Source: a virus (taxonomy: Duplodnaviria > Caudoviricetes). Taken from it: a DNA stretch of 64,000 nt. Made by a program: the position numbers and the translations under genes. The DNA is taken from positions 3,053-67,052 of IMG/VR virus record IMGVR_UViG_2654587510_000002. One strand, given 5' to 3'. The notes under the pieces are model-generated. The model was not told the origin of the DNA. It was given only the letters and a program-made list of their open reading frames with translations, and did not search any database. Shown here in pieces: positions 5,605 through 56,371 of the stretch. Position 1 is the first letter of the stretch. Every line of letters starts with the position of its first letter.

Positions 5605-5609
5605 TTCCT

Positions 5610-5660: not shown

Positions 5661-5672
5661 AAAGTGGAAGAT

Positions 5673-6644: not shown

Positions 6645-6767
6645 ACATAACAAATTGCTTAAGAATGACGGCTAACCTTTGGCATTTTTGGTTTGGTTGA
6701 GTTCAGTGATTAAGGTGGCTTTGCTTAGGTTTAGTGGTGTTAGCCGCACCTTAGCAAGGCGTTAGAA
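6645..6767 (+). repeat. attC (VXR-like variant)
   Basis: ACATAAC...GTTAGAA. Confidence 0.88.
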
Positions 6768-10519: not shown

Positions 10520-10846
10520 ATGGAACTTCGAACATTTGTAAAAGAAACACTAAAAGATGTATTAGGCGGCATTCATGATGCCCAAGCAGAAATTGAACAT
10601 GGTGAAGTTGTCCCACAATTAAACGAAAAAGGCTGGCAAGGACTGGAAACAGGTTTAACTAGTTTTCAGGCAATCGATTTTGAAGTCTCAGTAAATGCCG
10701 TAGAAAAAGAAGGTAGTGAAGCAAAGCTAAGTGTTGTTGCTGCTGTTGTTGGTGGGCATGTAAAAGGTGATAGTTCGAATATAGCTGAGCACACTGCGAA
10801 GTTGAGCTTCAAGGTACCAGTAAAACTGCCAATATCTAGCAAATAA
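10520..10846 (+). CDS. Cassette 13: Trypco2-like protein
   Basis: MELRTFVKETL...IDFEVSV...KLSVV..GG...KLSFKVP pattern. Confidence 0.55.
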   Translation: MELRTFVKETLKDVLGGIHDAQAEIEHGEVVPQLNEKGWQGLETGLTSFQAIDFEVSVNAVEKEGSEAKLSVVAAVVGGHVKGDSSNIAEHTAKLSFKVPVKLPISSK

Positions 10847-13368: not shown

Positions 13369-13492
13369 TTCACAACGCGTGGCATTTTTACTATGCGTTG
13401 ATTTTAGTGATTAAGGTGGTGTGCAGCGGCTTCGGTATTGCGTCGTTCACCCCTTAGCAGGGCGTTATATTTTTTCAACTTTTGAGGTAACA

Positions 13493-15253: not shown

Positions 15254-15255
15254 AA

Positions 15256-15352
15256 ATATAACAAAGCATTTAAGAGTGATTCGCAACGCTTGGCAGTTTC
15301 GCTTCGCTCAAGTATAGCCAAGCGCCGCTCACACCTTAATGCGGCGTTATGT
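15256..15352 (+). repeat. attC (short, 97 bp)
   Basis: ATATAAC...GTTATGT. Confidence 0.92.
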
Positions 15353-20014: not shown

Positions 20015-20218
20015 TTACGCCTCCAAGAATTGCAACAGTTCATCTGTTTGCGATGATTGGGCGTTCACTGATACACATACCAAGTAACGCCCTGTGGGTG
20101 TTTGCTCTCCCTCTATTTTACCTGATTTTATCCAGTTCTTAACGGTTGCCACGCTAATTCCCGAATCAGGATAGAACTCTTCAATGTAGTTCCTAGGTTT
20201 TAGTTTTCTCATAGTCAT
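20015..20218 (-). CDS. xis: Excisionase
   Basis: Small wHTH (SVATVKNWIKSGKI..PTGRYLV) directly upstream of int. Confidence 0.8.
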   Translation of the reverse strand: MTMRKLKPRNYIEEFYPDSGISVATVKNWIKSGKIEGEQTPTGRYLVCVSVNAQSSQTDELLQFLEA

Positions 20219-20460
20219 TTCTCAAAGTTGTTAAGGCTTGAAAATGCTCTCTGAAATTCTTGGACTACCGACTCTGCCGCTCTAGCTCTTGATGATGCTT
20301 GTTGCTCTAGCTGCTTATATCGCTTTAATTCTTTATCAATAACCTGATGATTAGTTATTAAGTCAAAGAGTGCTTTAGTCGCTGTGCTTTGTCCCGTTAT
20401 TCGTTTGGCATAATCGACAAGTTTTGCTTCTGCTTCATTGGGTCTAAGTGTAATTGCCAT
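20215..20460 (-). CDS. Hypothetical RHH-like/coiled-coil protein
   Basis: MAITLRPNEAE...TGQSTATKAL. Confidence 0.65.
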   Translation of the reverse strand: MAITLRPNEAEAKLVDYAKRITGQSTATKALFDLITNHQVIDKELKRYKQLEQQASSRARAAESVVQEFQRAFSSLNNFEK

Positions 20461-20467
20461 AATTAAC

Positions 20468-21037
20468 CTAAGAGGTTGGGATCGGATCGTTGGTTCTAAC
20501 TGCAAAGAGGTAAATTTTTTGCACGTAATTAAAAGGCATTTCCATTTTTTCAGCGATGCTTTCTAAGCTGAAATCGTTCTCATGCAGTTTTCTTACTAGC
20601 TCAATATCTTCATTTGAATATTTAGCACAATGGTGATTTTCGCCATAAGTGTGCAATCCATTAATGAGCCCGCGCTTCTTTAATATTTGCCCTCTGGTTT
20701 GAACTGATGAATTGGTGCGTTTTAATATTGCCCCAATTTTGTCGACTGATAATATTCCCGCATTATCAATGATTACCTTATCTTCCTCTTTTGTGTATCT
20801 GTCGGTTCTATTTCCGTTGCACTTACCGCAACTTACTCTCAAGCCTTTTCTAAGGTTGTAACTCGTTTTCTCTAAATGCCAATTGCCGCATTTACATAAA
20901 CAAAGGAAGCCTTGTCTAACTTGGTAGCTTACTACGTAGAGGTTTGAAAATGATTTGCCAGTTACATCAATAAAGGTGGTGGGAGGTCGACCAAACATAG
21001 GGTTGTTTTGACCTCGGTTGTTTCTGAGTTCAAACAT
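20468..21037 (-). CDS. Multi-module DNA-binding protein (NUMOD3-like, CxCxC, Myb-like HTH, terminal HTH)
   Basis: GQNNPMFGR, DVTGKSF..CLCKCG, RYTKEED, GENHHCAKYS; no HNH or GIY-YIG motif seen. Confidence 0.65.
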   Translation of the reverse strand: MFELRNNRGQNNPMFGRPPTTFIDVTGKSFSNLYVVSYQVRQGFLCLCKCGNWHLEKTSYNLRKGLRVSCGKCNGNRTDRYTKEEDKVIIDNAGILSVDKIGAILKRTNSSVQTRGQILKKRGLINGLHTYGENHHCAKYSNEDIELVRKLHENDFSLESIAEKMEMPFNYVQKIYLFAVRTNDPIPTS

Positions 21038-21048
21038 AAAACACCATT

Positions 21049-21144
21049 TGATTGCATTTTAAGTTGGTACCGGTTTCTCGAGGATGGGCGAATGATTGCA
21101 ATGGTTCGACTCTGCAGTTGCCAGGGCGAACGATTTTGCTATCA
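21049..21144. repeat. TGCWATCA 44-bp-period element, locus 1
   Basis: 8-mers at 21049, 21093 and 21137. Confidence 0.85.
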
Positions 21145-27218: not shown

Positions 27219-27626
27219 TTATAGCATTTTTGTCGCGCTCAGTATCGCTTCGTTGATTATTGCCTCAACTTTGTCTTCTGGCAGGTTAAGAGAATCGATA
27301 GTTTTCTTTAGTCTTAGGTAAGGTTCTAGCGACCTTTGTTTATCTGATTGTCTTTGCAGTATTTCTTCTGATGATAGAGATGCCTTGTCTGGTGAGCCTT
27401 TACCCGTTCGCAGCCAATGAGCATTAACCCCTAGCGCATCTGCTATCTCTATCAGCTTTGTTGAGCCTGAGCTCTGGCTTTTCTCTAGTCTACTTATCTG
27501 TGACTGCGCTAAGCCACTTAGCTCCGCAAGTCTTGCTTGGCTCATGGCTTTGCCTTGTTCCAAGTTATGTTGAAGTCTTCTTGCTAGTGCAATTCTCGCC
27601 CCAAAAGACATGTTTTTGTAATTCAT
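27219..27626 (-). CDS. CI-like repressor (XRE HTH, no S24 peptidase domain)
   Basis: MSQARLAELSGLAQSQISRLE...IADALGVNAHWLRTGKG; divergent from cro; only 135 aa. Confidence 0.85.
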   Translation of the reverse strand: MNYKNMSFGARIALARRLQHNLEQGKAMSQARLAELSGLAQSQISRLEKSQSSGSTKLIEIADALGVNAHWLRTGKGSPDKASLSSEEILQRQSDKQRSLEPYLRLKKTIDSLNLPEDKVEAIINEAILSATKML

Positions 27627-34003: not shown

Positions 34004-34184
34004 TGCAACTAAGTACATCTATCAAAAGCCGCCATTACCTCTAGTCGAAGCTTGCACCTATGAAGACTACACGGGGTCTGTATGGAACGACCTCGCTGAG
34101 TATGCAAAGGAGTTGCAACTCGAAATAGTATTTTGCCAGTTACAAAACGATAAGCTCAAGGAGGCTTACGAGCCCATTGAGTGA
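33930..34184 (+). CDS. o-spanin (Rz1-like lipoprotein)
   Basis: Lipobox LLTGC, Pro-rich, overlaps Rz. Confidence 0.8.
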   Translation: MNVAICLMVMLLTGCSQGRTSVSISATKYIYQKPPLPLVEACTYEDYTGSVWNDLAEYAKELQLEIVFCQLQNDKLKEAYEPIE

Positions 34185-34207
34185 TGCCATTTGACAAGGA
34201 GGTTAAG

Positions 34208-34816
34208 ATGGAACAATTCTACGAATACCGAGTTCGTGAGATAAATGAACTCAAGCCTAACCCTAACAATCCGAATATTCATGATGAAAAAAATATTTCT
34301 GAGTTGGCCTCATCATTAAAAGAATGGAAATTTACAAACCCAATTCTGATCGATGAGAAAGATGAAATCATAGCAGGTCATGGACGTTGGCAAGCCGCCA
34401 AGCATATCGGTTATGAGCATGTTCCTACGATAACGCTATCAGGCTTATCCGAAGAGCAAAAAATTGGCTATATGATCGCTGATAACTCATTACCACACGG
34501 TTCAGTTTGGGATGAGGGTTTACTGCTTCAAAACCTTGAAGCATTAGAAGATATGGATTTTGACGTTGATCTCTTGGCTCTAGAGAATGTAGAGGGGCTG
34601 GATCTTTCTATGGACCTTGAAGAGTTAGAAGATGGTCATGCGCTCGATGCAGGGCGAGAGTTGAAAGAGTCTGGTACCAGGTTGGTTATAGGCGAATATT
34701 CATTTCCAATAGAGCGTGAGGTCTATTTAAAGTGGCAAGAGGAAGTGAGAGAAGCAGGAGGTTTTAGTCGCGATGAGGTTTTAGAGACCATTAAAGCGAG
34801 GCTTAAACTATGCTAA
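34208..34816 (+). CDS. ParB/Srx N-terminal domain protein
   Basis: LKPNPNNPNIH, NPILID, IIAGHGRWQAA, IADN. Confidence 0.85.
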   Translation: MEQFYEYRVREINELKPNPNNPNIHDEKNISELASSLKEWKFTNPILIDEKDEIIAGHGRWQAAKHIGYEHVPTITLSGLSEEQKIGYMIADNSLPHGSVWDEGLLLQNLEALEDMDFDVDLLALENVEGLDLSMDLEELEDGHALDAGRELKESGTRLVIGEYSFPIEREVYLKWQEEVREAGGFSRDEVLETIKARLKLC

Positions 34817-36333
34817 AACTCGTTCCTATCGATTCAGTTAAGCCCTCCACATATAACCCACGTAAAGCCGACATCGAGCGGCTAGATATTCTTGAGTTGA
34901 GTTTGAGAAAGCTTGGCTTCGTTCTTCCCCTATTTGCCGACGCTAACGGCGAAATTCTATCTGGCCACCAAAGACACCTTGTTGCTAAAGAGCGCTTAGG
35001 CTTAACTCATGTGCCTGTTTTCTTTACAGAGAAAATGGACATTGCTGATCGCAAAGCAATAAACATTGCGTTTAATCGCGGGACTAATGATCTCAACATC
35101 TCTGACACACCAACTAATATGACCGAGGCGTTAGCTAAAGCTAATCTCGTAGAAAGTTCGCTAATGGTTAAAGATCGAGATTTAGAAGACCGTAGTTTTT
35201 ATCGGTGCCTAAATTCAAGGCCAGTGCTTGTTTCTGAGTTGGTTGATGCTAACCGTGGATGTTGGATTAACTACGCTAGAAACATGGCGCGAATGCTCAA
35301 GCGAAAAAAAGTAGACATGGCGGTTGTGTGCACACCTGATAATAAAGTCGTTAATGGAATTGGTCGCTTGCAGTACGCTGCAGAAAAAAGCATTGAGCGA
35401 ATTGAGGTTATCTATATTTCTCACGCAGAGGCGGCGCTAAGTCATGCCATGCTTAATTTGCTCAGTATGGATTTTGATATTCATACTCGTTATGAGGACT
35501 TGCTCCGATACAATTCATTCAGACGGGCACGCCGAGCGCGGAGCTCACTTGGACAAGGTTTTATTTTTGCCGTTGCACCTAATTCACGCTCTAAGGACTT
35601 TGATGTAGAGACGGACAGCAACTCCAAACTTTGGAAAAGAACGTATGGCCGAAATGTTGTCGATTTTGGAGCAGGTCATTTAACTGAAACATACTTATTA
35701 AGAAGTATTGGTGTGAACGTTACGCCATTTGAGCCTTATCGATTAGGTGAGAGTGGGAATATCAACAAAGATGAAAGCATAGACTTGGCAATTGGCTTTT
35801 TAGAACAAGTCAGGTCTGGTAAGAAATTTGATTCTGTATTCATAAGCTCAGTTTTGAATAGCGTTCCTTTTGTTGCTGATAGGCGCAAGGTCGCTTGTAT
35901 TTGCGCGGCGTTGTGCGGCCCTAAAACTCGCTTGTACGCATGTGCTAGTTCGTCTACCGACAGCACAAGCTTAAATGTAACCAAGGGCTCAGATGGGTTA
36001 GCGCAGCGACAGTCAACATACGCTACATTTGGCCTAGATTATGAAGATGGGATAACCATTGGCGACTTTCAAGAAAAGCCAAAGGTGCAAAAGTACCATT
36101 CTCCTAGTGAGTTCTACGCATTGTTTAAGCATTACTTTCAGACGGTTCGCGTAGAAGATAGTCTTAACAATGTTAGAGCTACGTGTATGACCATAGATTT
36201 TAAGGCGGTGGTTAAGGACCTCAAGTCAGCTTTGGAGTTTGAGTTTAATTTACCTTATCCAGATGGTTCCAAAATGGGTCTAACAACAATGGCAATAGAA
36301 GCGTTCGAAAAAAGACTAGGGGTGAAGTTATGA
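34810..36333 (+). CDS. Tandem ParB-like domains fused to a SAM-dependent methyltransferase-like domain
   Basis: YNPR/LSGHQR, VVNGIGRL, VVDFGAG, FDSVFISSVLNSVP. Confidence 0.75.
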   Translation: MLKLVPIDSVKPSTYNPRKADIERLDILELSLRKLGFVLPLFADANGEILSGHQRHLVAKERLGLTHVPVFFTEKMDIADRKAINIAFNRGTNDLNISDTPTNMTEALAKANLVESSLMVKDRDLEDRSFYRCLNSRPVLVSELVDANRGCWINYARNMARMLKRKKVDMAVVCTPDNKVVNGIGRLQYAAEKSIERIEVIYISHAEAALSHAMLNLLSMDFDIHTRYEDLLRYNSFRRARRARSSLGQGFIFAVAPNSRSKDFDVETDSNSKLWKRTYGRNVVDFGAGHLTETYLLRSIGVNVTPFEPYRLGESGNINKDESIDLAIGFLEQVRSGKKFDSVFISSVLNSVPFVADRRKVACICAALCGPKTRLYACASSSTDSTSLNVTKGSDGLAQRQSTYATFGLDYEDGITIGDFQEKPKVQKYHSPSEFYALFKHYFQTVRVEDSLNNVRATCMTIDFKAVVKDLKSALEFEFNLPYPDGSKMGLTTMAIEAFEKRLGVKL

Positions 36334-36977
36334 TCATACCTGAGTCATGGACGTTCAAAAATGCTGATGTAGCGGATGGATTTGATAACCATGTTCGAGA
36401 GCAATTGCCTTGGTATCTAATAGCGACAAGTATGACGGCTCACCTTGCTCGGAACTATCTACCAGAGCAGGGAACATTTATTGACCTTGGTTGCTCTACG
36501 GGGAATATAACCAAGGCGTGTAAAAATGAGCTTGTTCATCGAAATGCTACGGTAGTCAATATTGATAACTCAGAAGAAATGGCAGCGCGGTTTGATGGTG
36601 TTGGTGATGTTACTACAGCGGATATTGAGTCTTATGAGATACCTGAGTTTGATGTTTGCGTAATGTTCCTATCATTGATGTTTGTCCCGGTTAGCAAGCG
36701 GTCTGAGTTGATTGCCAACTTAGTCCGTAAAGTTAACGCTGGTGGCGTGGTGATTATCGTAGACAAGATGGAGTCTTTTTCTGGTTATAGCGGTCAGGTG
36801 ATTAGTCGGCTGACGATGGCCAATAAGTTAGAGTCGGGCTGTAGTGCTGACGACATACTTAAAAAGGAGCTTTCATTATCAGGAATCCAAAGGCCATTAA
36901 AGCCTGAGCTACTTGGACCATTTACTAAGTGGTTCCAAATGGGTGAGTTTTGCGGGTACCTGTTTGAGGGCACTTAA
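36330..36977 (+). CDS. CmoA-like class I SAM-dependent transferase
   Basis: WTF..VADGFDNHVREQLPWY, DLGCSTG, IDNSEEM, WFQ. Confidence 0.78.
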   Translation: MIIPESWTFKNADVADGFDNHVREQLPWYLIATSMTAHLARNYLPEQGTFIDLGCSTGNITKACKNELVHRNATVVNIDNSEEMAARFDGVGDVTTADIESYEIPEFDVCVMFLSLMFVPVSKRSELIANLVRKVNAGGVVIIVDKMESFSGYSGQVISRLTMANKLESGCSADDILKKELSLSGIQRPLKPELLGPFTKWFQMGEFCGYLFEGT

Positions 36978-46323: not shown

Positions 46324-47732
46324 TTCTTAACACAACGCAACACGTTGTCACGATCGGAACTGATGTAACCGACCAATGGCAGTTATCTGATGATGTTTTT
46401 GAGGGAACTCACCGCCTTAGGCAAAGGAAGATTAAGTATTTGCCTAAGTTAGAGGGCGAATCGAAAGAAGCCTACGAAATGCGACTTAAAAGAGCCGTAT
46501 TGAAGAACAAGTATAAAAAGACTCTCACTAAGGCAGTTGCCAACCTACTCAAAAACGGAATCACCACCACATTCGAAGAGGCAAACGTAGACGGGAAAGG
46601 AACCAACTTAAAAGCTTTCCTCCGAAAGATGGGAGTTAGAGCCGTTAAGTATGGAATCAGTTATGTGCTTGTCGATACGCCAAGTTTTGAGGGAGAGCCG
46701 AATACCTTAGAAAAGGAACTTTATTCGATTAAACCGTATTTCTCGATTCTCGATAACCTAACGGTCACAGAAATTAAATACGGCATTCTTGGTTCAACCA
46801 TTGAGCTTCAATACTTCGAATTTAAAACCACATTGCCGGAATACGAGGGAGAGCTAAGAAAGGTTTATGAGCTCCACGTAGATGGTGACACCAAGCTTGT
46901 GCAATGGCGAATTGAAAAGGAAGAGGGCGAGGGTAAAGAACGCCGATTACTTGAAACTGGAATTATCGATATTCCCATTATTCCCATCGTCCCTGTATAC
47001 GGCTCAGATAATGATGATGTGTTTGTGAACGTGCCTCCTTATCTGGATTTGGCTTATTACAACCTTATGCATTTTCAAGCCACTTCTGATGCGGGTATCG
47101 CTCATTTTGTTGCTGCTACCCCAATGCTCTTTATGCGTGACTCATCGGTGGCCAAGCGTGATGACAAGGGAAACGTCATTGAAGACAAGATCAACATATC
47201 CCCCTGGTCAGTAATCAAAACGAGCGCCAATGATAGCGAAGTTAGTTGGGTAGAAACTCAAGGCGCAGCACTTACCCAGCATCGCGAATGGTTAACGCAC
47301 ATTGAGACAGATATGGATGAACTGTCCATGAATCTTAATTTGCAATCCCCTGACGCTACAGCTACCGCGAATAACCTACAGGCCGCTGATAACCAAGCCG
47401 GAATCGAATTTGTGAAAGACGAGATTGAGCGTGCCGCTAGGATGCTAATCAAAATCGTGAGCATCTTTGATTCGTCTATCCCTACTGGCGAGTTTGAAAT
47501 TAACGCAGTGGGTATTGGCACGATTACACCGGAACAAATAGCAACCATTGAAACGCTACATGGCAAGGGCCTTATATCTGATGAAGCTTACGTTGAAGTA
47601 ATTAATAAAACGCTGCCCTTTGATATTGAATACGACAAGGACGCAGAAACCGAAAATGACGAGAATCCGAATAGTGATCCTGATGACGAGGAACTAGAGG
47701 AAGAATCTCAAGAAAACGAAACTGAGGAATAA
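46320..47732 (+). CDS. Portal protein (DUF4055-type)
   Basis: YLPKLEGESKEAYEMRLKRA, PPYLDLAYYNLMHFQ; position after terL. Confidence 0.88.
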   Translation: MILNTTQHVVTIGTDVTDQWQLSDDVFEGTHRLRQRKIKYLPKLEGESKEAYEMRLKRAVLKNKYKKTLTKAVANLLKNGITTTFEEANVDGKGTNLKAFLRKMGVRAVKYGISYVLVDTPSFEGEPNTLEKELYSIKPYFSILDNLTVTEIKYGILGSTIELQYFEFKTTLPEYEGELRKVYELHVDGDTKLVQWRIEKEEGEGKERRLLETGIIDIPIIPIVPVYGSDNDDVFVNVPPYLDLAYYNLMHFQATSDAGIAHFVAATPMLFMRDSSVAKRDDKGNVIEDKINISPWSVIKTSANDSEVSWVETQGAALTQHREWLTHIETDMDELSMNLNLQSPDATATANNLQAADNQAGIEFVKDEIERAARMLIKIVSIFDSSIPTGEFEINAVGIGTITPEQIATIETLHGKGLISDEAYVEVINKTLPFDIEYDKDAETENDENPNSDPDDEELEEESQENETEE

Positions 47733-47734
47733 CT

Positions 47735-48403
47735 ATGCCGATTGATACTAACGAGCTGCAAGAGTGGCTAAATACCGATGATGGTAAAGCGTGGAATGAA
47801 ACGCACACCTCTGATTTGCGAACCGAAGTTGGAACGTACAAAGGAAAAGTGAAGGAGTTTGAGACGCAAAACAAAGCGCTTTCTGGTGAAGTTACCACTC
47901 TTAAAGCTGATCTTGAGAAAGCCGTCAAAACTCCCGAAGAAATGGATGCTGACACAAAAGCTAAGATTTCGGCATTAGAGGGGAACCTCAAGGAAGTGCG
48001 CGGCCAAAACTCCGGCTTGATGAAAAAGATTCAAACAGGTCATGTAAACGGCTTGATTGACCAAGCTATCAAAGCAGAGGGCGGTAATCCTGACCTGTTG
48101 TATTTACAGGTTCGCACTCGAACGGTTGTAGATACTGACTCACAAGGCAACTCAGTTATCCACGTTGTCGATGACAAGGGTAACAAGATGTATGACCAAA
48201 ACGGCAACCCAGCGGGTGTTGATGCGATTGTTCGTAGCTTAAAAACGAATGACAACTTTAAACCTGCATTCAAAGAACAAGTTAAATCCGGCTCAGGCCA
48301 TCACCAATCCTCCACTTCAAAACCAAACGATAAAAACGCGTTAGATATGGACGTTAAAGAACTTAACGATCCTAAAAGCCTAGAAAGCTTGCTGTTTAAG
48401 TAA
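47735..48403 (+). CDS. Head scaffolding protein
   Basis: Coiled coil, KSGSG motif; precedes the capsid gene. Confidence 0.78.
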   Translation: MPIDTNELQEWLNTDDGKAWNETHTSDLRTEVGTYKGKVKEFETQNKALSGEVTTLKADLEKAVKTPEEMDADTKAKISALEGNLKEVRGQNSGLMKKIQTGHVNGLIDQAIKAEGGNPDLLYLQVRTRTVVDTDSQGNSVIHVVDDKGNKMYDQNGNPAGVDAIVRSLKTNDNFKPAFKEQVKSGSGHHQSSTSKPNDKNALDMDVKELNDPKSLESLLFK

Positions 48404-48456
48404 GTCTATTTCACTCGTAAATCAAAACTACTAAATTAAATACTGGAGAATTTCCT

Positions 48457-49467
48457 ATGCCTGAATTTCAAGGTGAATACGTACCAGAGAATGGTCTTGA
48501 GTACATCATTGCATCAAACCTAAAGAAAAACCGCTTAGCTACTTCTGGCTCAATGACAACAACACCTATGACCGTTGCGAATGCAGGTTATCTAAATGTT
48601 CAACCTTTCTGGGGCGATCTGCCGGGTGTGTTTACAGATAACCTCACTGGTCAGCCGCTTAATTTTCACGAAATTGATGGTGGTAACTTTTCCGCTCCAA
48701 TTCTGAACGTTGAAAACGGTTGGACTCGAGAGGGCGTTAAAGATGCATTCACGATGGGCGATCGTCGCGTAATTATGGAAATGCTAGGTAAAGTATCTAA
48801 CTTTTCTATTCGCGAAATTAACCGCCTTTCCTTGCTTATCTCTGTTGCGGCTACAGCGGGCGCTAACACCGATGAGTGGCCGACAGTCATGGATATGTCG
48901 GATGTTGGCATTGGACTAGCGCACCGTCATATCACACGCGCTCTAGGTATGTTTGGAGAGCAGCAAGACGAAGTAGGTACGCTTTGGGTTCACTCTGATG
49001 TGCAAGTACATCTAGACGAGCTAAACCTTATCTCAAACCAAGCTGCTTATCCTGGTCAATACATGCCTTATGGCCGTGTTGGTAAATTAACGCTGATGGT
49101 GGATAACACTCTCACTCCTGCTGTGGTTGAAGATGACAACGGCGATGATGTGAATATTTACCCAATGCTGCTAGGTGCGGGTGAGTTCTTTGCTTATGGC
49201 GATGGCTCAATCCCTGCGAAAGTAGCGGAAACTGATCGCGATGTGACAGGCGACAACGATAAGCTGGCGACTCGTCAGCGTATTTGTCTGCATACCTTTG
49301 GTACCCGTTACGAGCCAGTTCAATCAAACCGAGCGGCTACACTGGCCGAAGTTCTGGACGCTAACAACTGGCACTCATCATTCGAAAACGTAGAAACGGG
49401 CGGCTATCCATTCCGTACAGCGCTACTCATGGCGTCACTTAACGATTTCGAACCTGCTACGCCATAA
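48457..49467 (+). CDS. Major capsid protein
   Basis: PFWGDL, VHSDV..L, ETDRD, LDANNW; position and downstream terminator. Confidence 0.85.
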   Translation: MPEFQGEYVPENGLEYIIASNLKKNRLATSGSMTTTPMTVANAGYLNVQPFWGDLPGVFTDNLTGQPLNFHEIDGGNFSAPILNVENGWTREGVKDAFTMGDRRVIMEMLGKVSNFSIREINRLSLLISVAATAGANTDEWPTVMDMSDVGIGLAHRHITRALGMFGEQQDEVGTLWVHSDVQVHLDELNLISNQAAYPGQYMPYGRVGKLTLMVDNTLTPAVVEDDNGDDVNIYPMLLGAGEFFAYGDGSIPAKVAETDRDVTGDNDKLATRQRICLHTFGTRYEPVQSNRAATLAEVLDANNWHSSFENVETGGYPFRTALLMASLNDFEPATP

Positions 49468-49493
49468 GCTCAAGCTGAATTGAATTAATCTGC

Positions 49494-49519
49494 AAGCCCT
49501 GCATAGGTAGGGCTTTTTT
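49494..49519 (+). terminator. Intrinsic terminator
   Basis: AAGCCCTGC-ATAG-GTAGGGCTTTTTT. Confidence 0.8.
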
Positions 49520-49535
49520 ATTGTTAGGGGATCAC

Positions 49536-49865
49536 ATGTACAAAGTAGAACAATTTGAAAATACAGCTGAGTTAAAAGAGTACGCGAAAAACCGCTACCA
49601 GTTAGATATTCGCGGAAACCTAAGCCTAGAAAATGCGATTGCCTCATTTAATGAGCAACTAAACGAAGCGAGTAAAGCTATGGAAAATTCGAAAACAGAA
49701 AAACCGCAAGACACACCAACCCCAACACAAAAGCCAAAGAAAAAAGAAACGGCGGCTGAACGCGAACAGCGCATGATGCGTGGCCAAAAGCGTAAAAAGA
49801 ACATTGCTTCTGCGTCAGCATTGCAAATCGTTCGTGACGGACGCAAGGCGCGAGGTCAGCGCTAA
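49536..49865 (+). CDS. Hypothetical (HeH-like N-terminus, basic C-terminus)
   Basis: AELKEYAK...LDI pattern. Confidence 0.6.
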   Translation: MYKVEQFENTAELKEYAKNRYQLDIRGNLSLENAIASFNEQLNEASKAMENSKTEKPQDTPTPTQKPKKKETAAEREQRMMRGQKRKKNIASASALQIVRDGRKARGQR

Positions 49866-50356
49866 TGTATTGCACCATGGAACAAGCCGAAGCGTACTTT
49901 AATGATTTTTATGGAATCGACAGTGAATGGGAGTATGTAGACGAAGACGTTAGACGCAATCTGCTAAACCGCGCAACCTTAGCAATTGATAGTCGTTTTG
50001 GTCAGTCCTTCCGTGGCGAAATTTACGACCAAGAACAAGCTAACTTATTTGGCAGAACGGAATTTGTAGATGGTAACGGGCGAACCATTCCAGAAAACAC
50101 AATTCCAACCATGCTTATTAGAGCAACGGCAGAACTCGCACTCATGGCGTCTCAGGACGATGATATTTTTGGAGCTGATAATCGCACAGGTATTCAGTCT
50201 GAAAGCGTCTCCGTGGGCTCTGTGTCGACTTCTACGGCTTATACCAATAACGGATCTTTTACTGATGAAACTGGAATGATCTCCGTGATGTTATCTGCCT
50301 TACTTACGGGTAACTCGGATTCCTCATTCTCGTTCGGTCAATCCTCAAGGGGGTGA
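49865..50356 (+). CDS. Head-tail adaptor (DnaT-like family)
   Basis: YCTMEQAEAYF, IP..LIRATAELAL, SESVSVGSVS. Confidence 0.8.
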   Translation: MYCTMEQAEAYFNDFYGIDSEWEYVDEDVRRNLLNRATLAIDSRFGQSFRGEIYDQEQANLFGRTEFVDGNGRTIPENTIPTMLIRATAELALMASQDDDIFGADNRTGIQSESVSVGSVSTSTAYTNNGSFTDETGMISVMLSALLTGNSDSSFSFGQSSRG

Positions 50357-50357
50357 T

Positions 50358-50669
50358 ATGGCCCAATTCAACTACGCCAAGACAAAGAAAAAAGCTCAAA
50401 AGGTAATACGTAATGCGGGAGCCGCTTTTATTGTCGAACGTAATGGCCGCAAGAAGCGCGGCTACATGGTTATGGATGGCGTTGAGAAAGGGTGGCGTGA
50501 TGATCATTTAACGGAAACAGAAACGGCAACTTGTATTTGTGATATCGAAGTGCTGCAAGGTGATGTGCTTCGATTCTCAAAGCTCAAGATTGAATACCGC
50601 GTACTAGATAGCTCACCAGAACAACCAAATGGTGAGCCTCTTTTCTGGAATGTCTCTATTTCGAGGTGA
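50358..50669 (+). CDS. Head closure protein
   Basis: Position and size. Confidence 0.65.
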   Translation: MAQFNYAKTKKKAQKVIRNAGAAFIVERNGRKKRGYMVMDGVEKGWRDDHLTETETATCICDIEVLQGDVLRFSKLKIEYRVLDSSPEQPNGEPLFWNVSISR

Positions 50670-50673
50670 TCAC

Positions 50674-51240
50674 ATGGTTACTCAAGAAATTGATTTAAAC
50701 AAACTGGCAGAGGCGTTAGGTAAATCACTCACAAACAATATCGGCTTTCTCGCAGAAGAGTTAGCCGATGTGATCATAGTCAAAGCCCCTGTAGAAACGG
50801 GGCGCATGGTTCGCTCCATTAATGTGAATGATGGAAATAATCCCGTTTTAACGGATACCTATCGCAGCCAGAAAATTGAGAAAAACGTTCAAGGCGTTAA
50901 GGCCTCTCAAAAACTAAAAATTCGCAGTGCTGTAAACAGACGAATTAAGCGCAGAGGCGTTAATCGTAGAGCAAATATTTGGTGGATCACTTCTGCCGCT
51001 CCTTACTCAACTCACGTTCATAGTGGCCAAGCTTATCGAAACCGCATCAAAGGAATGCCAAGGCGACAGCAACGGGCAGCGTTCGCCAACATGCGCGACA
51101 AGATGGAACAGCGAGGACAAACGCAGTACGAGCGTAAAACCGGACAAGGCCATAACTTTTTCAGTATCAAATCTAATGAATTAGCTAGTGCCGCTAGAAA
51201 GGCCGCAAGGCGCAACCGACTGAACAAGGTGAACGTATGA
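50674..51240 (+). CDS. Neck/tail completion protein (HK97 gp10-like)
   Basis: APVETGRMVRSI, APYS..VH.G. Confidence 0.78.
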   Translation: MVTQEIDLNKLAEALGKSLTNNIGFLAEELADVIIVKAPVETGRMVRSINVNDGNNPVLTDTYRSQKIEKNVQGVKASQKLKIRSAVNRRIKRRGVNRRANIWWITSAAPYSTHVHSGQAYRNRIKGMPRRQQRAAFANMRDKMEQRGQTQYERKTGQGHNFFSIKSNELASAARKAARRNRLNKVNV

Positions 51241-51626
51241 TTTCAGATATACACACTGGCTTTCACTCCCTCATAGCTGACGCACAGCTCGGCATCGATG
51301 TTAAGTACGAAAATTTGGTATATCAGCCCCAGTTAAAAGAGGCCTATGGAATATTCCAATTGGGTCCCGTTTCTACTGAACGGCAAAGCCAAGGTAAGTG
51401 CTCATGTTTGACGTATGTAGGAGAGGCCACGTTAACAATCAAAACCGATGTTAAAACGGGCGTTGATGAAGCGTATCAACTTGCTGACAAGCTAATCACG
51501 TTCATCATGGAGAACGGGCTCTATTCTGGCTTGAAAATGATTGAGCCGCCATTTGTGGGGGCTACCGAGCAAGAGTTTGATTGGTTGGCTTTACCAATAT
51601 TTATCCCTTATCAAAAGGATTCCTAA
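51237..51626 (+). CDS. Tail terminator
   Basis: VKYEN, G...AYQLAD; position. Confidence 0.72.
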   Translation: MISDIHTGFHSLIADAQLGIDVKYENLVYQPQLKEAYGIFQLGPVSTERQSQGKCSCLTYVGEATLTIKTDVKTGVDEAYQLADKLITFIMENGLYSGLKMIEPPFVGATEQEFDWLALPIFIPYQKDS

Positions 51627-52639
51627 TGACTAACAAACGAGTCACGAAAACTACTGGTGCGAAAATAGCGAGTGGTTCTAACGTAATATTGAAGCGTGTA
51701 TTTGAGCCGACATTTGGTGTGGCGGGTGATGAAATAGAGCAACAACGTTTTACCACTTATTCGCCATCATTCACCAAGAACGAAGCAACCGACCCAACGG
51801 TTAACGGTAATCGACAAGATACAGAAACGCGATTTACGACAAGAGAGCTTACTTTTTCACTTGAAGCTGTTTTATCTCACGCTGACCAAGATCCTCTCAT
51901 TGCTTCTGCTATGTGGTCCAATTGGAGTGATACGGATGAAAACGGAGAGCGCGTTATAAGCATTGGTTCTCCTGCTGTTATGTCTTCTTACACGTATGAA
52001 GCCGACCAAGTTGATATCGATACACAAAGACGCTTCAAAGGCTTGGCCGTAAACAGCATGACCATCACATCACCTCTAGATGGTAATACGTCTGTCACTT
52101 ACGAAATGATTGGACAGGAAGAAGTAAAGGTTGAGACGGCACTAGGTGACGCTACACCTTATGAAAACAATCAAGCCTATACACACATTGGCGGTGAGAT
52201 TGATTTTGCAGGTATTGAAGATTGTATCATTCAGTCGTTCGATGTGACGATCACCAACAATGCAGCTGCCGATTTTTGTTGGGGTGAACGTGGTGCACAC
52301 TCAATTACAGAAGCGAACGTGGAAGTAACTGGAAACCTCACTCTTTTCTACATCAATTCAGTTATCAACGACATGTATCTCGATGATGCAGAGGGAACAT
52401 TAAACGTGATCTTGAAAGACGAGGACGACAATGAGTTTGAACTCGATTTTCAACGCATTCAAGCCACTGGCGCGGATAACCCATTCGCAGCCGGACAGCG
52501 CGTTGTCACATTGCCGTTTCGTGCATTAGCCGCGAAAGACGGTAGCCATGATGCGCTTACTATTAAGGCGCGTGGTTATAGCGATGTTCCTGACCCTGAC
52601 GCATTAAAACTTGATACACCAGAACCACCACAAGAATAA
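51626..52639 (+). CDS. Major tail tube protein
   Basis: EPTFGV, RRFKGLAVNSM, EVTGNLTLFY. Confidence 0.85.
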   Translation: MTNKRVTKTTGAKIASGSNVILKRVFEPTFGVAGDEIEQQRFTTYSPSFTKNEATDPTVNGNRQDTETRFTTRELTFSLEAVLSHADQDPLIASAMWSNWSDTDENGERVISIGSPAVMSSYTYEADQVDIDTQRRFKGLAVNSMTITSPLDGNTSVTYEMIGQEEVKVETALGDATPYENNQAYTHIGGEIDFAGIEDCIIQSFDVTITNNAAADFCWGERGAHSITEANVEVTGNLTLFYINSVINDMYLDDAEGTLNVILKDEDDNEFELDFQRIQATGADNPFAAGQRVVTLPFRALAAKDGSHDALTIKARGYSDVPDPDALKLDTPEPPQE

Positions 52640-52640
52640 A

Positions 52641-52736
52641 TGCAATCAAACGGTTCTTCCTCGAGCTTTGCCAGGGAGAACTTTTGCAATCAATTCCAAC
52701 TCCTGCAGCAACCGGCAACAACCTAACTTGCAATCA
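52641..52736. repeat. TGCWATCA 44-bp-period element, locus 3
   Basis: TGCAATCA at 52641, 52685 and 52729. Confidence 0.9.
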
Positions 52737-52747
52737 AAAGGTATTTT

Positions 52748-53086
52748 ATGGCTATCGAAGTCGCAGCAAAACCCGTTATTGAAAAACTAGAAGACCTAGA
52801 GGTTTCGTTTCTATTTGAGGGTAACGAGTACAAAGTATTTGTTACCCCTTTTGGATCATCCCGATATTTCGCAGCAAGTAAGTTGCTGTCTCAATCAGAA
52901 AACCAAGGCGAACAGGCTGAGGGATTTAATCAATACGTAGCTACGCTTATCACTGGTTGGGACTCCCCTGAGTTTTTTGGTGGTGAGTATAGCCATCAGT
53001 TGGCATTGACTATCTGTGATAATCCTAAAAACATTTGGTTTACGTTAGCAGTTAGCAAGCAGGTGACAGAAACCGTAAAAAAGTAA
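52748..53086 (+). CDS. Tail assembly chaperone (gpG-like)
   Basis: LITGWD; ends in the slippery site A AAA AAG. Confidence 0.8.
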   Translation: MAIEVAAKPVIEKLEDLEVSFLFEGNEYKVFVTPFGSSRYFAASKLLSQSENQGEQAEGFNQYVATLITGWDSPEFFGGEYSHQLALTICDNPKNIWFTLAVSKQVTETVKK

Positions 53087-53445
53087 GCGAAGCTGAAAAG
53101 ACGATTATTGAGCAAATAAAAAACTCAACGGTATTGAATGCTGTCTGTGGCGACAATAAAACCTTGAGAGAACATCAGCTTTCAGTGCAAAAGGACTTGG
53201 CAAATAATCGATTTAAAAACCCAGAAAAGGTAATGACGTCGATTGGCGAACTGCTTAAAGAGCAGCAATTCACTAGCCCTAAGATTCTTGATGATGTCCT
53301 ATTTATTTTTAAGAGACTCATTCATTTATCTGCTGTTGAAATAGAAACTTTGTGTCGTCTTTATGGGGTGAGTCTTTTGCCATGGGAAATTGATCTTTTA
53401 TATAAAATGAAAGCCGCGAAAATTGAGGAGGTGTCTAATGTCTAA
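53077..53445 (+). CDS. gpT-like extension via -1 frameshift
   Basis: AAAAAAG at 53077-53083; the -1 frame is open into the 53134-53445 ORF (EI...LLPWEIDLL). Confidence 0.75.
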   Translation, partial: KKVSEAEKTIIEQIKNSTVLNAVCGDNKTLREHQLSVQKDLANNRFKNPEKVMTSIGELLKEQQFTSPKILDDVLFIFKRLIHLSAVEIETLCRLYGVSLLPWEIDLLYKMKAAKIEEVSNV

Positions 53446-54895
53446 TATCGTTACTGCGGTAAAAATTGCTGTCGACTCAGGGGCTTTAGATTCCGCAACA
53501 AGTAAAGCCGATGAGCTTAGTAAAACGGCAGGTGTAAAGATTCCCGATGGATTCAAAAAAGCAGCCACCAGTGCAGTTGCGGTTACGGCCGCTATTGCTG
53601 CTGCTGTAACTGCTGCAGAAAGCCTGAGTAACGAACTTGAGCAACAATCCCAACGTGGTTACGATTTTTATAACACAATGGATAGCCAAGTTAGACCTTC
53701 GATGGTCTACATTGCTGAAACTATCGAAGCGCAAAACGCAGCGTTAGATCAGCAAAAAGATTTGGCGGCCGTGGCTTCTGCAAATATGGCTATCGGTTGG
53801 AATAAGGTGAAAATTGCAGCGGGTGGGGTATGGCAGGAATATGGCCTAGGCATCAAGAATGCGGAGGAAGCGACAGATAAATTCATAAAGGATTTTGCTG
53901 ATAGCTTGGCAACAGACCAAATCAACGAAGAAAACGGTATACTGGATAACTTTTTCGGTAAGCGTGAGGCTATTGACAAGCGGTCGGAGGAGATTCAAGC
54001 ATCTATTCGTAAAGATATGGATAAGATGAATGAAGCTGCTGAGACTCTATCTCAGGCAAGCGCAGAACGCCGACTTCAAAGACTTGAAGGAATGAACGAT
54101 ACAGCCCGCGAACGGCGTGATAAGCAATTTGCGCAAGAGATTAAAGAGCGCGAAGCAGCAATAGTTTTAGCCGCCAATGATTCTCAAAAGGAAGCATTAG
54201 AGGCGGAGTTGAAGCGTTTCAAGGAGGCTCAAAAAAACTTCAATGACCATTTGAATGAGCAAGAGCAAATGGCAGCTGAGGCAGAGCAAAGGCAGGCGGC
54301 TGAGGGGGTTAGGCAATTATGGCTCAGGAACCAAGAGGCTGACGTCATACTTGCCGACCAAATAGGCAAAGAAAAAGAGGCGTGGAAAGAGCGATATGAA
54401 CAAGGCTTGATTGATGAAGAAGCTTATAAAATGGCTTTAACAGAAATCGAGGTGACGTACCAAAATGGATTGGCTGATATCAGAGAACAGGCAAATGCAG
54501 AAGCTGTAAAAGTTGCTAAAAAAGCGGCGGAAGATATGAGCAGTGCTACTAGCTCGGCGCTTTCTATTTTGGATGATGATTTAGCGAATTTATTTGATTC
54601 TATTAATTCACTGGTTTCTGTTTTACAGACGTTGAAAATGGTTGATGGTGCAGGTGGGATCTTTGGGCTTGCGGGTGGAATCGGAGGGAGCGGTGGCGGC
54701 CTTTCAAGCTTCGGGGGAATCTCAGTAGGTACAGTATCAGTAAGCGTGCAAGGTAATACTGACACTGTAGGAATGAAGAACTCAGCTCAAGAGGGTGTTT
54801 ACGGTGCTCTCAATGGCATTGTTAAAGATACGTTGGCTAAAGAGTCGAAGTATGGCGGGATATTCAATCCATCATCTGGAACACACAGAATGTAA
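53438..54895 (+). CDS. Tape measure protein (short, 485 aa)
   Basis: Ala-rich helical protein between the chaperones and the distal tail gene. Confidence 0.78.
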   Translation: MSNIVTAVKIAVDSGALDSATSKADELSKTAGVKIPDGFKKAATSAVAVTAAIAAAVTAAESLSNELEQQSQRGYDFYNTMDSQVRPSMVYIAETIEAQNAALDQQKDLAAVASANMAIGWNKVKIAAGGVWQEYGLGIKNAEEATDKFIKDFADSLATDQINEENGILDNFFGKREAIDKRSEEIQASIRKDMDKMNEAAETLSQASAERRLQRLEGMNDTARERRDKQFAQEIKEREAAIVLAANDSQKEALEAELKRFKEAQKNFNDHLNEQEQMAAEAEQRQAAEGVRQLWLRNQEADVILADQIGKEKEAWKERYEQGLIDEEAYKMALTEIEVTYQNGLADIREQANAEAVKVAKKAAEDMSSATSSALSILDDDLANLFDSINSLVSVLQTLKMVDGAGGIFGLAGGIGGSGGGLSSFGGISVGTVSVSVQGNTDTVGMKNSAQEGVYGALNGIVKDTLAKESKYGGIFNPSSGTHRM

Positions 54896-54896
54896 A

Positions 54897-54992
54897 TGCA
54901 ATCATTAGTGCTTTTCTCGAGCTTTGCCAGGATGTGGATTTGCAATCAATAACGTCTTGGCCACAAACCGGCACCGTGTTTGATTGCTATCA
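54897..54992. repeat. TGCWATCA 44-bp-period element, locus 4
   Basis: 8-mers at 54897, 54941 and 54985. Confidence 0.88.
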
Positions 54993-55424
54993 AACTTTAC
55001 GAGTGACCAAGCCTAGCTCTTCAAGAGCAGATGCAAACTCGCTTCTTAGCTCAAAAGTGAAATGATCATCTTTCGGCTTAGTTCCATCGTGTATGACTGA
55101 AAACCACATAATAGAATCATCCGCTTTTCTTCGCTCGGTTGGTATGACTTCTAATTCATCTGCAATCATTACACTAAAACTACCTATTAGGCCATTTGCC
55201 CCGTTGCCATGATATCCAAGGTGGTGGCCTATTTTCCTACATGTAGTTTTCATATCCTTTGAGTTGAAATGAAAATCAAACATCTTGAGGTGATTTTCCG
55301 TGAGTTTTTCTTTTTGAATCAAAGAGAGCAAAGCGTCCATGTAGTTTTGCTTCGTTATTACGTTACTTTCCATCACTAAGCCTGCGTAAGTAGTCTGCCA
55401 GTCAATTTTCATACTGTTTAACAC
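54990..55424 (-). CDS. Antisense moron, hypothetical wHTH-like protein (start uncertain)
   Basis: Opposite strand inside the tail operon. Confidence 0.65.
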   Translation of the reverse strand: MLNSMKIDWQTTYAGLVMESNVITKQNYMDALLSLIQKEKLTENHLKMFDFHFNSKDMKTTCRKIGHHLGYHGNGANGLIGSFSVMIADELEVIPTERRKADDSIMWFSVIHDGTKPKDDHFTFELRSEFASALEELGLVTRKV

Positions 55425-55533
55425 TGCTTTTAAATGTGCAGAAGAAGCGCTAGTTATTTTTTATACCAAGACTGCAAAATTTATAAGTTCTCATCGTTGG
55501 AGCTTGTATTCCTAAAAAATAAAAGGGGGAACA

Positions 55534-55869
55534 ATGTCTTTACCTCATAATGATTTACTAAGTCAGAACTCATCATTTCAAACTAGTCAAAGCATGCTGA
55601 TGATCCAATACGGTGACGGCTACGGACAGCGCGCAGAAGATGGGTTAAACAATACGCGCCAAATTGGTTCCCTAGTTTGGATTCCACTATCACTATCCGA
55701 GCGAGACGATATTCAAAGCTTTTGGCGAGAAAGCGGCGCAGTTAGAACATGGCTATGGACAGCTCCAAATGATACGGAACGACTTTGGAGGTTTTCTGGC
55801 GGTATTTCTGAAAATAACGTTGGCGATAAATACCTGCTAACTGTGGAAGTAACAGAAGAATTTGAGTAG
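55534..55869 (+). CDS. Distal tail protein (lambda gpM-like)
   Basis: QYGDGYGQRAEDGLN, WTAP. Confidence 0.88.
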   Translation: MSLPHNDLLSQNSSFQTSQSMLMIQYGDGYGQRAEDGLNNTRQIGSLVWIPLSLSERDDIQSFWRESGAVRTWLWTAPNDTERLWRFSGGISENNVGDKYLLTVEVTEEFE

Positions 55870-55876
55870 GTGATTT

Positions 55877-56371
55877 ATGAGTGCCAATGATCGTTATGTC
55901 GGTCAAATCGTTGCGTTATTTGAGCTGGATTTTCGCCGTATCAATGGGGGAGTTATTTACATTACCAATAACAGCTTTCGTGATAGGGATGTTGTTTGGA
56001 ATGGCACGTTATACACGCCAAATCCTATCTTACTGGAAGAACTCAGCAATTCGGTTCAAGGAACAAGTCCAACGCCAACATGTAAAATCGGCAACTTGAC
56101 GGGGATCTTAAATGAGCAAATACGACTAACGAGGGATCTTGTCGGCGGTAAAATAACGAGAACTTTGATTTATTCCGAAAACCTAGATGATGGGGACAAC
56201 CCTAGCTCGACTCCTTTCCAACCTCCCGAAGTGTTCTACATCAACAATAGCTTGAGAGATAAAACAGAACTTTCATTTAGGACTAGCACTCAGCTTGGCG
56301 CCTACCATACGCAGATACCCGCTATGAGAGCCACGGTTGATAAGTACCCGGGTCTTAAAAGGGTTTATTAA
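55877..56371 (+). CDS. Tail tip protein (gpL-like, short)
   Basis: LFELD, VVWNG..Y.P.PI, DLVGGKITR. Confidence 0.82.
   Translation: MSANDRYVGQIVALFELDFRRINGGVIYITNNSFRDRDVVWNGTLYTPNPILLEELSNSVQGTSPTPTCKIGNLTGILNEQIRLTRDLVGGKITRTLIYSENLDDGDNPSSTPFQPPEVFYINNSLRDKTELSFRTSTQLGAYHTQIPAMRATVDKYPGLKRVY

Follow-up and report, generated by a model that had tools for sequence, protein, structure and literature searches.

Phased TGCWATCA arrays dispersed through a temperate phage genome: candidate operators of a small ribbon-helix-helix-like protein

The DNA considered here (the window: the whole analysed stretch of 64,000 nucleotides, positions 3,053 to 67,052 of the Caudoviricetes record IMGVR_UViG_2654587510_000002 in IMG/VR) is part of a 67-kb provirus record. 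Its prophage part, which begins at ~18.7 kb, is that of a lambdoid siphovirus and carries early and regulatory genes (integrase, xis-like, Gam, exonuclease, CI- and Cro-like repressors, O-like initiator and NinB) together with genes for an endolysin, ParB_N proteins and a methyltransferase, tail fibre, tail tube and tape measure; among cultured phages no close DNA relatives of positions 40000-56000 were found. The subject of this report is an intergenic element at 52641-52736, lodged between the tail tube gene (51581-52639; Pfam Phage_tube_2, E 2.2e-30) and a late gene (52748-53086). Read from the stop codon of the former, it consists of a single A, three copies of TGCAATCA (starting at 52641, 52685 and 52729) that enclose two 36-nt interiors, and AAAGG immediately after the last 8-mer, followed by the next start codon, with exactly 11 nt between the last 8-mer and the ATG. 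The usual element is thus a triplet of 8-mers spanning 96 bp in total. The window holds four intergenic loci built on this plan (the unit types are defined further below):

52641..52736, plus strand: element L3, the reported locus; three 8-mers, all on the plus strand, with a type-A interior (CTCGAG CTTTG CCAGG) followed by a type-B interior (CTGCAG CA ACCGG)
54897..54992, plus strand: element L4; 8-mers at 54897, 54941 and 54985, the last of them the T variant, with a type-A interior followed by a type-B interior (TGGCCA CAA ACCGG)
21049..21144, minus strand: element L1; 8-mers at 21049 and 21093 on the minus strand and at 21137 on the plus strand
40037..40088, no strand given: element L2; a single type-C unit (TGGCCA AAGT CTGCAG) with convergent 8-mers

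Element L4 lies 3' of a putative tape-measure gene (53423-54895; its match to the tape measure PHROG is weak, E 1.8e-4), L2 follows two hairpin/T-run sites and precedes a gene at 40124-40507, and L1 is placed immediately 5' of a minus-strand operon with the order 189-codon open reading frame (ORF), ribbon-helix-helix (RHH)-like gene, xis-like gene and integrase, its last 8-mer standing 11 nt from the ATG of the first of these (20468-21037).

Counted on both strands, TGCWATCA occurs 15 times in the window, against a mean of 6.95 +/- 2.79 in shuffled sequence (none of 100 shuffles reached 15), and exact 44-bp same-strand pairs number five where 0.00 are expected. When either strand is allowed for each 8-mer, there are seven units of the form TGCWATCA-N36-TGCWATCA, starting at 21049, 21093, 40037, 52641, 52685, 54897 and 54941. 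A search tolerating one mismatch added no 44-bp unit, and a weight matrix built from 71 sites and run over the window revealed no extra cluster, only lone 8-mers at 22437, 29490, 30018 and 55161. The initial annotation, which had given the coordinates, the motifs and the exact 44-bp period, was confirmed at all four loci on re-reading, and the comparison with shuffled controls that it had proposed set seven units against none by chance. Its further remarks, that CTCGAGCTTTGCCAGG is identical in loci 3 and 4 and that the 8-mers occur in both orientations, also held, the former for the first units of the two loci and the latter through the mixed strands of L1 and the convergent pair of L2.

Is this architecture confined to a single prophage? 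Conservation in other phages had been named as a check, and five further, otherwise unrelated phage records were found to share both the motif and the 44-bp register. When viral contigs were scanned for pairs of 8-mers with a 44-bp spacing, 62 stretches were returned; the majority resemble chance occurrences or conserved coding sequence, and a subset, several of them within the same contigs, displays the full grammar of AT-rich edges around a GC-rich palindromic core. The five records (G001-G005, of which G001, G002 and G005 are also loci L068, L072 and L079) measure 40-50 kb, have a GC content of 36-46% and contain 2 to 6 clusters each, with 6 to 18 exact 8-mers per record where the reversed-pattern control gives 0 or 1. 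Together with the phage of the window (G000) they form the set of six phages referred to throughout, which holds 47 units, 41 with a spacing of exactly 44 bp and 6 with one of 55 bp. The longer spacing is limited to two low-GC phages, in which all six elements are made of tandem 8-mers 44 bp apart and then, 55 bp further on, a convergent one, the whole lying on either strand. The logo of the 71 clustered sites from the six phages covers 14 bp, WWW-TGCWATCA-WWW, with a near-invariant 8-mer flanked by A/T triplets. Pairs of 8-mers may be tandem, convergent or divergent while the spacing stays unchanged, and an exact spacing kept under all three arrangements fits a protein that reads duplex DNA better than it fits a transcript.

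The interiors have an order of their own, and three types of unit can be told apart:

Type A: CTCGAG CTTTG CCAGG
Type B: a hexamer palindrome, (C)AA, ACCGGY and ACCAACTTAAAA
Type C: CTGCAG N4 TGGCCA, between convergent 8-mers (found as L2 and also in G002 at 25130 and 26840)

The two short palindromes at near-fixed offsets that had been noticed at the outset prove to be a general property, as the 47 interiors contain 82 six-base palindromes, compared with 26.3 +/- 4.8 in dinucleotide shuffles (maximum 43), and the centres of the boxes (six-base palindromes, CCWGG and CCGG) fall 11-15 nt from the nearer interior edge. This placement sets the two boxes about one helical turn apart and makes the unit roughly two-fold symmetric. 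GC content is ~0.1 over the three outermost positions of an interior and climbs to 0.5-0.8 at its centre. Between G000 and G004 the orthologous elements retain their cores and differ in their flanks, as at L3, whose ortholog occupies the same junction (G004 12929-13024), and L4 has an ortholog at G004 10748-10843. Flanks are, all the same, less free than the initial annotation had supposed when it called them variable, since the right flank ACCAACTTAAAA and its near variants are shared by six units across G000, G002 and G004. Two GC-rich boxes that vary from unit to unit, are always palindromic and occupy fixed positions between the sites make up a structural puzzle in their own right.

Could these cores be arrays of restriction or modification sites, acting as decoys, sensors or shielded targets? 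They do carry a disproportionate share of each phage's CTCGAG, CTGCAG, CCWGG and ACCGGT sites (all three CTCGAG sites of G004 and all four CCTGG sites of G002 lie inside elements), and modification genes stand beside some of them (Mom in G002, ParB_N with a methyltransferase in G000 and G004). However, the palindromes change from unit to unit and from host to host, no enzyme of matching specificity was identified, and the fixed positions of the boxes relative to the 8-mers speak for architecture rather than for particular enzymes. Of the decoy or sensor idea put forward earlier, the strong enrichment in palindromes stands, but nothing links them to any enzyme, and we consider this explanation very improbable.

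Which protein, then, might read the sites? In an all-against-all BLASTP comparison of the six-frame ORFs of the six phages, exactly one protein family was present in all six, the runners-up reaching three. Its members are ~80 aa long and begin with MA[ILV]T[ILV]R; the one encoded in the window is:

20218..20460, minus strand: gene for an 81-aa RHH-like/coiled-coil protein (MAITLRP...), the proposed binder of the 8-mer

The AlphaFold2 model of this protein (pLDDT 86.8) predicts a strand or extended segment at residues 1-8, a helix at 9-22 and a long helix at 27-80, and residues 38-80 match leucine zippers. Foldseek gave no match to the model at E <= 0.001; against the PDB the best E was at least 0.43, and the named weak matches were mostly RHH proteins (AtaR, NikR, ParG, CopG, Arc, TacA and ParD), while weak matches among viral models were to 'RHH DNA-binding' and NikA-like proteins. 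The nearest named Atlas clusters (NikA-like, Arc and RHH_1, with scores of 0.76-0.81) are to be taken as leads only. An alignment of 60 sequences has T4 and R6 without exception and M1 and A2 almost always, and the helices are joined by a TG-x-x-S/T turn, a hallmark of RHH proteins. These proteins contact the bases through every other residue of their N-terminal strand; an invariant ribbon would thus be expected to go with an invariant site. FitA, a gonococcal RHH antitoxin, may have an operator half-site similar to the T variant of the 8-mer; the family profile matched neither FitA nor any other RHH chain in the PDB.

Known families offer little by way of a name. Pfam and NCBIfam hold no family for the 81-aa protein, its PHROG is one of unknown function, and close relatives in Vibrio chagasii and V. 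crassostreae are labelled hypothetical. A profile search of 1.8 billion representatives recovered 225 relatives at E <= 1e-3, nearly all of 70-120 aa and without a name wherever one was looked up; relatives occur on 10 plasmid records. With tblastn, the window's own 81-aa protein found nothing in phages or plasmids, and a second query, P0001, found nothing in phages. A match of the family profile to Nop58 (E 0.052, residues 6-49 of the chain) falls among the coiled-coil matches that dominate the result (best E 0.0078) and was not counted as evidence of a Nop relationship.

The bond between gene and sites is close. An element adjoins the RHH-like gene in all six phages: in G002 and G005 it immediately precedes the gene, in G000 it precedes the operon to which the gene belongs, in G004 it is 5' of the gene with a 521-bp insertion in between, and in G001 and G003 it overlaps the 3' end of the gene. 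The orthologs of L1 in G002 (39489-39584) and G004 (47019-47114) are both 5' of the RHH gene. When the family profile was run on the six-frame ORFs of the 62 motif-scan loci, it matched nine (L012, L023, L029, L036, L041, L048, L052, L057 and L064), in each of which the protein is encoded within ~750 bp of an 8-mer pair, and none of the chance-like or coding-repeat loci. The converse approach used nine loci chosen through the protein instead of the motif (L084-L092), drawn from Photobacterium genomes, two Vibrio inoviruses, an inovirus on a V. parahaemolyticus plasmid, a Pseudoalteromonas inovirus-like prophage, a Photobacterium replicon and Mucilaginibacter and Pedobacter plasmids. Pairs of 8-mers spaced by 44 bp are present in seven of the nine; in six they stand directly 5' of the gene (L085, L086, L087, L088, L091 and L092, from Photobacterium, Vibrio inoviruses and the Pseudoalteromonas inovirus-like prophage), and the Mucilaginibacter plasmid (L089) has four clusters in 12 kb. 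Sites at the protein's own promoter region, a feature of autoregulation, are accordingly present by position in G000, G002, G004 and G005 as well as in these six loci. A near-consensus sigma-70-type -35/-10 pair was recognized by eye between 8-mers 2 and 3 of L085, just 5' of the gene; a scan for sigma-70 promoters inside the elements of the window found none. Of the explanations offered in the initial annotation, phased sites for a phage protein is hence the one now favoured, the RHH-like family, found in six of six phages and always beside an element, being the candidate.

Gene and element also meet within the coding sequence. Many relatives have a gene whose 3' end runs into an 8-mer, and of 118 representatives, 39 carry the tail motifs expected from an in-frame 8-mer, where shuffles give 18.3 +/- 3.6. 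In a low-GC subfamily (G001 3716-3773; P0005, P0027, P0034 and P0052) the RHH frame enters the element, and the protein thereby gains a Gly/Ser/Ala-rich tail encoded by the palindromic core; three representatives of 178 aa have a frame that crosses two 8-mers into a downstream domain, which may be a real fusion or an artefact of gene calling. At the other end of the gene, the first codons, Met-(Met)-Ala-Ile-Thr, amount to a copy of the 8-mer with one mismatch (L086 6850, L088 5999, L092 5999 and G002 39596), and in three loci this start-codon copy is exactly 44 bp past the third site, in the manner of a fourth. A different AT-rich repeat (ATATCT/TATATA variants), and not the 8-mer triplet, is found 5' of the RHH relative on both Sphingobacteriaceae plasmids, that of Pedobacter (L090, 5820-6010) and that of Mucilaginibacter (L089, 5780-6020); the Pedobacter record has two cytosine methyltransferase genes 2 kb downstream.

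Plasmid-borne relatives raise the thought that the elements serve partition, as dispersed, centromere-like sites bound by an RHH protein in the manner of plasmid prophages. In type Ib and type II systems the centromere is usually bound by an RHH protein, dispersed centromeres are known from the linear plasmid prophage N15, and G005 has a ParA-like gene (15246-15947). Nonetheless, ParA-type ATPases (PF13614/PF01656) were detected in G005 only of the five records searched (G000-G003 and G005, the record of the window thus being negative), which makes partition unlikely; G000, G001, G002 and G004 are classed as integrated proviruses, and the module also exists in small inoviruses. We would give a role in partition very little credence.

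Where the elements lie is informative about what they may do. In the six phages they are always intergenic, in tandem, convergent and divergent gene contexts alike. In the siphoviruses G000 and G004 an element separates the tube gene, called by Pfam, from the chaperone/tape-measure block. The myovirus G005 has the order sheath, a gene labelled 'head closure' in the tube position, element, tail-protein/chaperone-like gene and tape measure, and the myovirus G002 the order sheath, a 155-aa ORF in the tube position, element and tail assembly chaperone; in these two the assignment to the tube junction rests partly on gene order. The placement at the tube/tape-measure junction thus recurs in tail modules that BLASTP does not link. 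Other elements stand 5' of ParB_N-led operons (G001, G002, where a Mom-family gene is included, and G004), and in G005 also between the CI-like and CII-like genes and 5' of the integrase.

Taken together, these observations lead us to propose that the four loci are operator arrays of the prophage's own small RHH-like protein, serving autoregulation and acting as control or barrier points at the junctions of gene modules, a reading to which we assign a probability of roughly 0.55; binding of the 8-mer by the RHH-like protein, judged by itself, deserves a somewhat higher figure, and the barrier function, judged by itself, a lower one. From the sites, their register, their conservation and their strict co-occurrence with the protein we infer binding, oligomerization and an effect on transcription in the following manner. 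One dimer would occupy each 14-bp WWW-TGCWATCA-WWW site through its N-terminal beta-ribbon, with the invariant Thr4 and Arg6, and would accept the site in either orientation because the 8-mer is pseudo-symmetric (TG....CA). The long, leucine-zipper-like C-terminal helix would join dimers bound to neighbouring sites. As 44 bp correspond to about four helical turns, this phasing and the zipper-like tail together would turn a cluster of two or three sites into one nucleoprotein complex of ~100 bp that takes in the GC-rich palindromic core. Such a complex may bring about autoregulation where it forms at the gene or operon of the protein itself. The extra copies would constitute a regulon spanning the phage genome, made up of control or barrier points that work in either orientation at gene-module junctions: at the boundary of tube and chaperone/tape measure, after the tape measure, 5' of the ParB-like/Mom modification operons and, in one phage, in the CI/CII control region and 5' of the integrase.

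If correct, this would define an undescribed family of phage and plasmid regulators (225 representatives at 50% identity) whose DNA code is exceptionally easy to read, being one invariant 14-bp site repeated at 44-bp intervals; no published description of the pairing of element and protein was found in open-access text. The pairing spans siphoviruses, myoviruses, filamentous phages and plasmids of Vibrionaceae, and extends to plasmids and records with mainly Bacteroidota relatives. It would also offer a handle on expression boundaries inside the long operons of temperate phages, for instance between tube and chaperone/tape measure, and a simple sequence signature by which to annotate such junctions.

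Several findings weigh against this proposal. First, the RHH assignment of the protein is drawn from weak structural matches of a predicted model, with Foldseek E values of at least 0.057 throughout and no Pfam or PDB match to an RHH sequence. Second, two of the nine protein-fetched loci are without clear phased pairs, L084 having one exact 8-mer with degenerate neighbours and L090 none. Third, some units have flanks that differ in sequence yet are complementary, and stems with G-U pairs, for example L4 with its ortholog in G004 and L1 with its ortholog in G002, a hint of structure in RNA or single-stranded DNA. Fourth, in Vibrio-type phages the type-B unit mostly faces the downstream gene at a fixed 11 nt from its ATG (five of the six Vibrio-type elements directly 5' of a gene have exactly this distance, with a Shine-Dalgarno-like WAWGG after the last 8-mer), and a directional feature of this sort would be superfluous in a pure barrier model. 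Finally, a protein that binds the 8-mer gives no account of the strongly conserved, palindrome-rich cores, and it is chiefly on account of these boxes that explanations at the level of RNA or of recombination are kept in view. By eye, a sigma-54-type spacing was seen to fit type-A units only, not B or C, and an IHF-like reading of 8-mer plus flank puts T-rich positions 9-10 nt after the 8-mer, away from where the IHF consensus would need them; neither candidate was retained.

Might the elements act mainly in RNA, as hairpins of the REP/BIME kind in polycistronic mRNA, with the RHH protein merely a co-travelling regulator? The upstream message would then be stabilized or the downstream one attenuated, yielding, for example, much tube and little chaperone and tape measure. 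The palindrome-rich interiors would suit such a role, as would the fact that elements follow highly expressed structural genes and that the tail-module elements of G002 and G005 come directly before a hairpin/T-run. Units flanked by inverted 8-mers do fold well (z -2.2 to -7), although inverted flanks bring this about necessarily, and the mean over the 47 units is z ~-1.5 on either strand. In L4 and its G004 ortholog, CCAGG and its flank pair with the next unit's flank and TGG, in stems of 9 and 7 pairs that include G-U pairs, on the sense strand only. Yet the units have no one structure in common, z values near 0 or above occur in many that are tandem-flanked, and G001 has two elements each way relative to transcription, while the invariant 8-mer keeps its exact spacing in either direction. 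In inoviruses and several prophages, moreover, the array is 5' of the RHH gene and not in a 3' region. Rfam produced no match at gathering score over the whole window and none even at E <= 1 for 52550-55050, no tRNA genes were found, and the elements contained no intrinsic terminators. On balance, an action chiefly at the RNA level seems unlikely to us.

A more specific RNA-based idea, raised in the initial annotation, saw the loci as TIGR-like mini guide-RNA arrays, here to be read by a non-canonical protein. There is a resemblance in the conserved short 'edges', the variable stretches, the central motif, the period of a few tens of nt and the carriage by phages (PMC12045711 and 10.64898/2026.09.09.750476), and TIGR systems are common in phages according to PMC12045711. 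The arrays of the window, however, have one or two units against the usual 5-15 (PMC12045711); their 8-mers are inverted within loci 1 and 2; the central motifs of the two units of one locus differ, with no constant loop repeat; and the flanks recur between units and between phages, unlike unrelated spacers. The sole protein shared by the six phages has 81 aa. The annotation had remarked that no Nop-domain/Tas gene was in sight, and a six-frame search of the whole 67-kb record with Pfam Nop (PF01798) agreed, giving no match at E <= 10 with controls that did match, though a Tas protein may diverge from the model. Membership in the TIGR-Tas group fails on every feature testable here, and we regard the guide-array idea as extremely unlikely.

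A different possibility is suggested by the mosaic structure of these genomes, namely that the elements are recombination joints for the exchange of modules and morons, with the RHH protein pairing clusters of 8-mers in an architectural or synaptic capacity. The homology seen by blastn among G000, G002 and G004 ends precisely with the outermost base of an element (G000 21049 with G002 39584; G002 39584 with G004 47114). At L4 the homology between G000 and G004 breaks in or beside the last 8-mer, after which G000 has a 558-bp insertion, and the 521-bp insertion of G004 sits exactly at the element edge, before the RHH gene. Two related genes on the opposite strand have been inserted precisely at the outer 8-mers of two elements, with their stop codons inside the 8-mer; the one in the window and the ORF beside L1 are as follows:

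54990..55424, minus strand: opposite-strand gene encoding 144 aa, whose insertion point is the outer 8-mer of L4 and whose stop codon falls within that 8-mer; unmatched in Pfam and PHROG
20468..21037, minus strand: 189-aa ORF between L1 and the RHH gene; matches to PHROG 323 ('D5-like regulator') and PHROG 374 (HNH endonuclease); outside the core system

The relative of the 144-aa gene (27% identity) occupies G004 47112-47525, in the same placement at the element 47019-47114. Two like-oriented elements bracket a ParB_N plus Mom cassette in G002, a DNA invertase gene is 3' of the RHH gene in G005, and the RHH gene stands beside xis/integrase in G000, G002 and G004, all of which would befit a joint. 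Against this, no recombinase is common to the six phages, the far ends of the insertions have neither a second 8-mer nor a target duplication, ordinary homologous recombination also yields mosaic joints at conserved intergenic sequence, and elements at orthologous positions are old and stable (G000 versus G004). Recombination joints strike us as a rather improbable primary role. Bolder still would be a portable 'junction' system in which coiled-coil tails pair clusters across sites or across co-resident phages and the palindromic cores extrude or are broken and rejoined. The mosaic breakpoints and moron insertions exactly at element edges are compatible with it, and it would mean dedicated joints for swapping modules and morons, a phage counterpart of integron attC without a dedicated integrase; we hold it to be distinctly improbable.

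Some neighbours of the elements merit a record of their own. The PHROG 323/HNH-like protein was considered as a second shared protein and set aside, as it lies beside the RHH gene in G000, G001 and G003 and is absent from G002, G004 and G005; the small ORFs neighbouring the RHH gene are mutually unrelated except in G002 and G004. The bracketed cassette of G002 (5249-6684, minus strand) encodes a ParB_N protein and a Mom-family protein (Pfam Mom, E 2.7e-50), where G000 and G004 carry two ParB_N proteins and a class I methyltransferase instead (window 34181-36977), and the G005 gene immediately 3' of the RHH gene (9680-10261, minus strand) encodes a DNA invertase/serine recombinase (PHROG 125, E 1.1e-47). 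Defence-type genes occur in the left 18 kb of the window, which lie outside the set of lambdoid genes: a putAbiC-domain ORF at 8630-9406 (E 2.5e-20) and, at 13421-15253, a gene for a 610-aa protein whose AAA_15 and OLD-like TOPRIM domains (E 4.8e-41 and 5.9e-17) point to an OLD/Gabija-GajA-like nuclease. A trypsin-like peptidase ORF is found at 1077-1769.

How, finally, does the proposed operator array compare with systems already known? Mnt of phage P22 is likewise a repressor of the RHH class, ~80 aa long, which oligomerizes through a coiled-coil domain at its C-terminus, and Arc appears among the weak Foldseek matches to the 81-aa model (rank 41), but each of the two has one operator of ~20 bp in immI, and neither is known to have dispersed arrays or a 44-bp register. 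REP/BIME, BOX and Correia elements are similar as modular, palindrome-rich intergenic elements of ~100 bp that lie in either orientation in operons, often near terminators; they differ as repeats of host chromosomes that are not known to have an invariant 8-mer on a register, served by RAYT transposases or by no known protein, whereas the elements described here travel on phages and plasmids in company with an RHH gene. A further likeness is offered by omega, the repressor of inc18 plasmids (pSM19035), which is a small RHH protein acting on heptad arrays: its Thr/Arg beta-ribbon reads short asymmetric sites in direct and inverted orientations, several sites are needed, and it controls several operons of one mobile element. 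The 7-bp repeats bound by omega are contiguous, however, whereas the phage sites have a 44-bp spacing and are separated by conserved palindromic cores; the phage protein has in addition a zipper-like helix of ~50 residues, and no sequence similarity of the 81-aa family to omega was detected. In the stoperators of cluster A mycobacteriophages (the L5 gp71 type), as PMC9283540 describes them, a phage repressor binds and also blocks elongation, and many copies of one short asymmetric site are spread genome-wide, mostly in short intergenic gaps, much as here. By the same account (PMC9283540) stoperators occur singly, always face the same way relative to transcription and are recognized by an immunity repressor that is a helix-turn-helix monomer, whereas the present elements are phased triplets in either orientation with an RHH-like candidate binder, and a CI-like repressor is the product of a separate gene (27219-27626). 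Phased triplets, palindromic cores, a coiled-coil tail and the protein family thus set the arrays apart from both omega and stoperators, and by analogy they would resemble the omega-type RHH global regulators in function and the stoperators in their dispersal across the genome.

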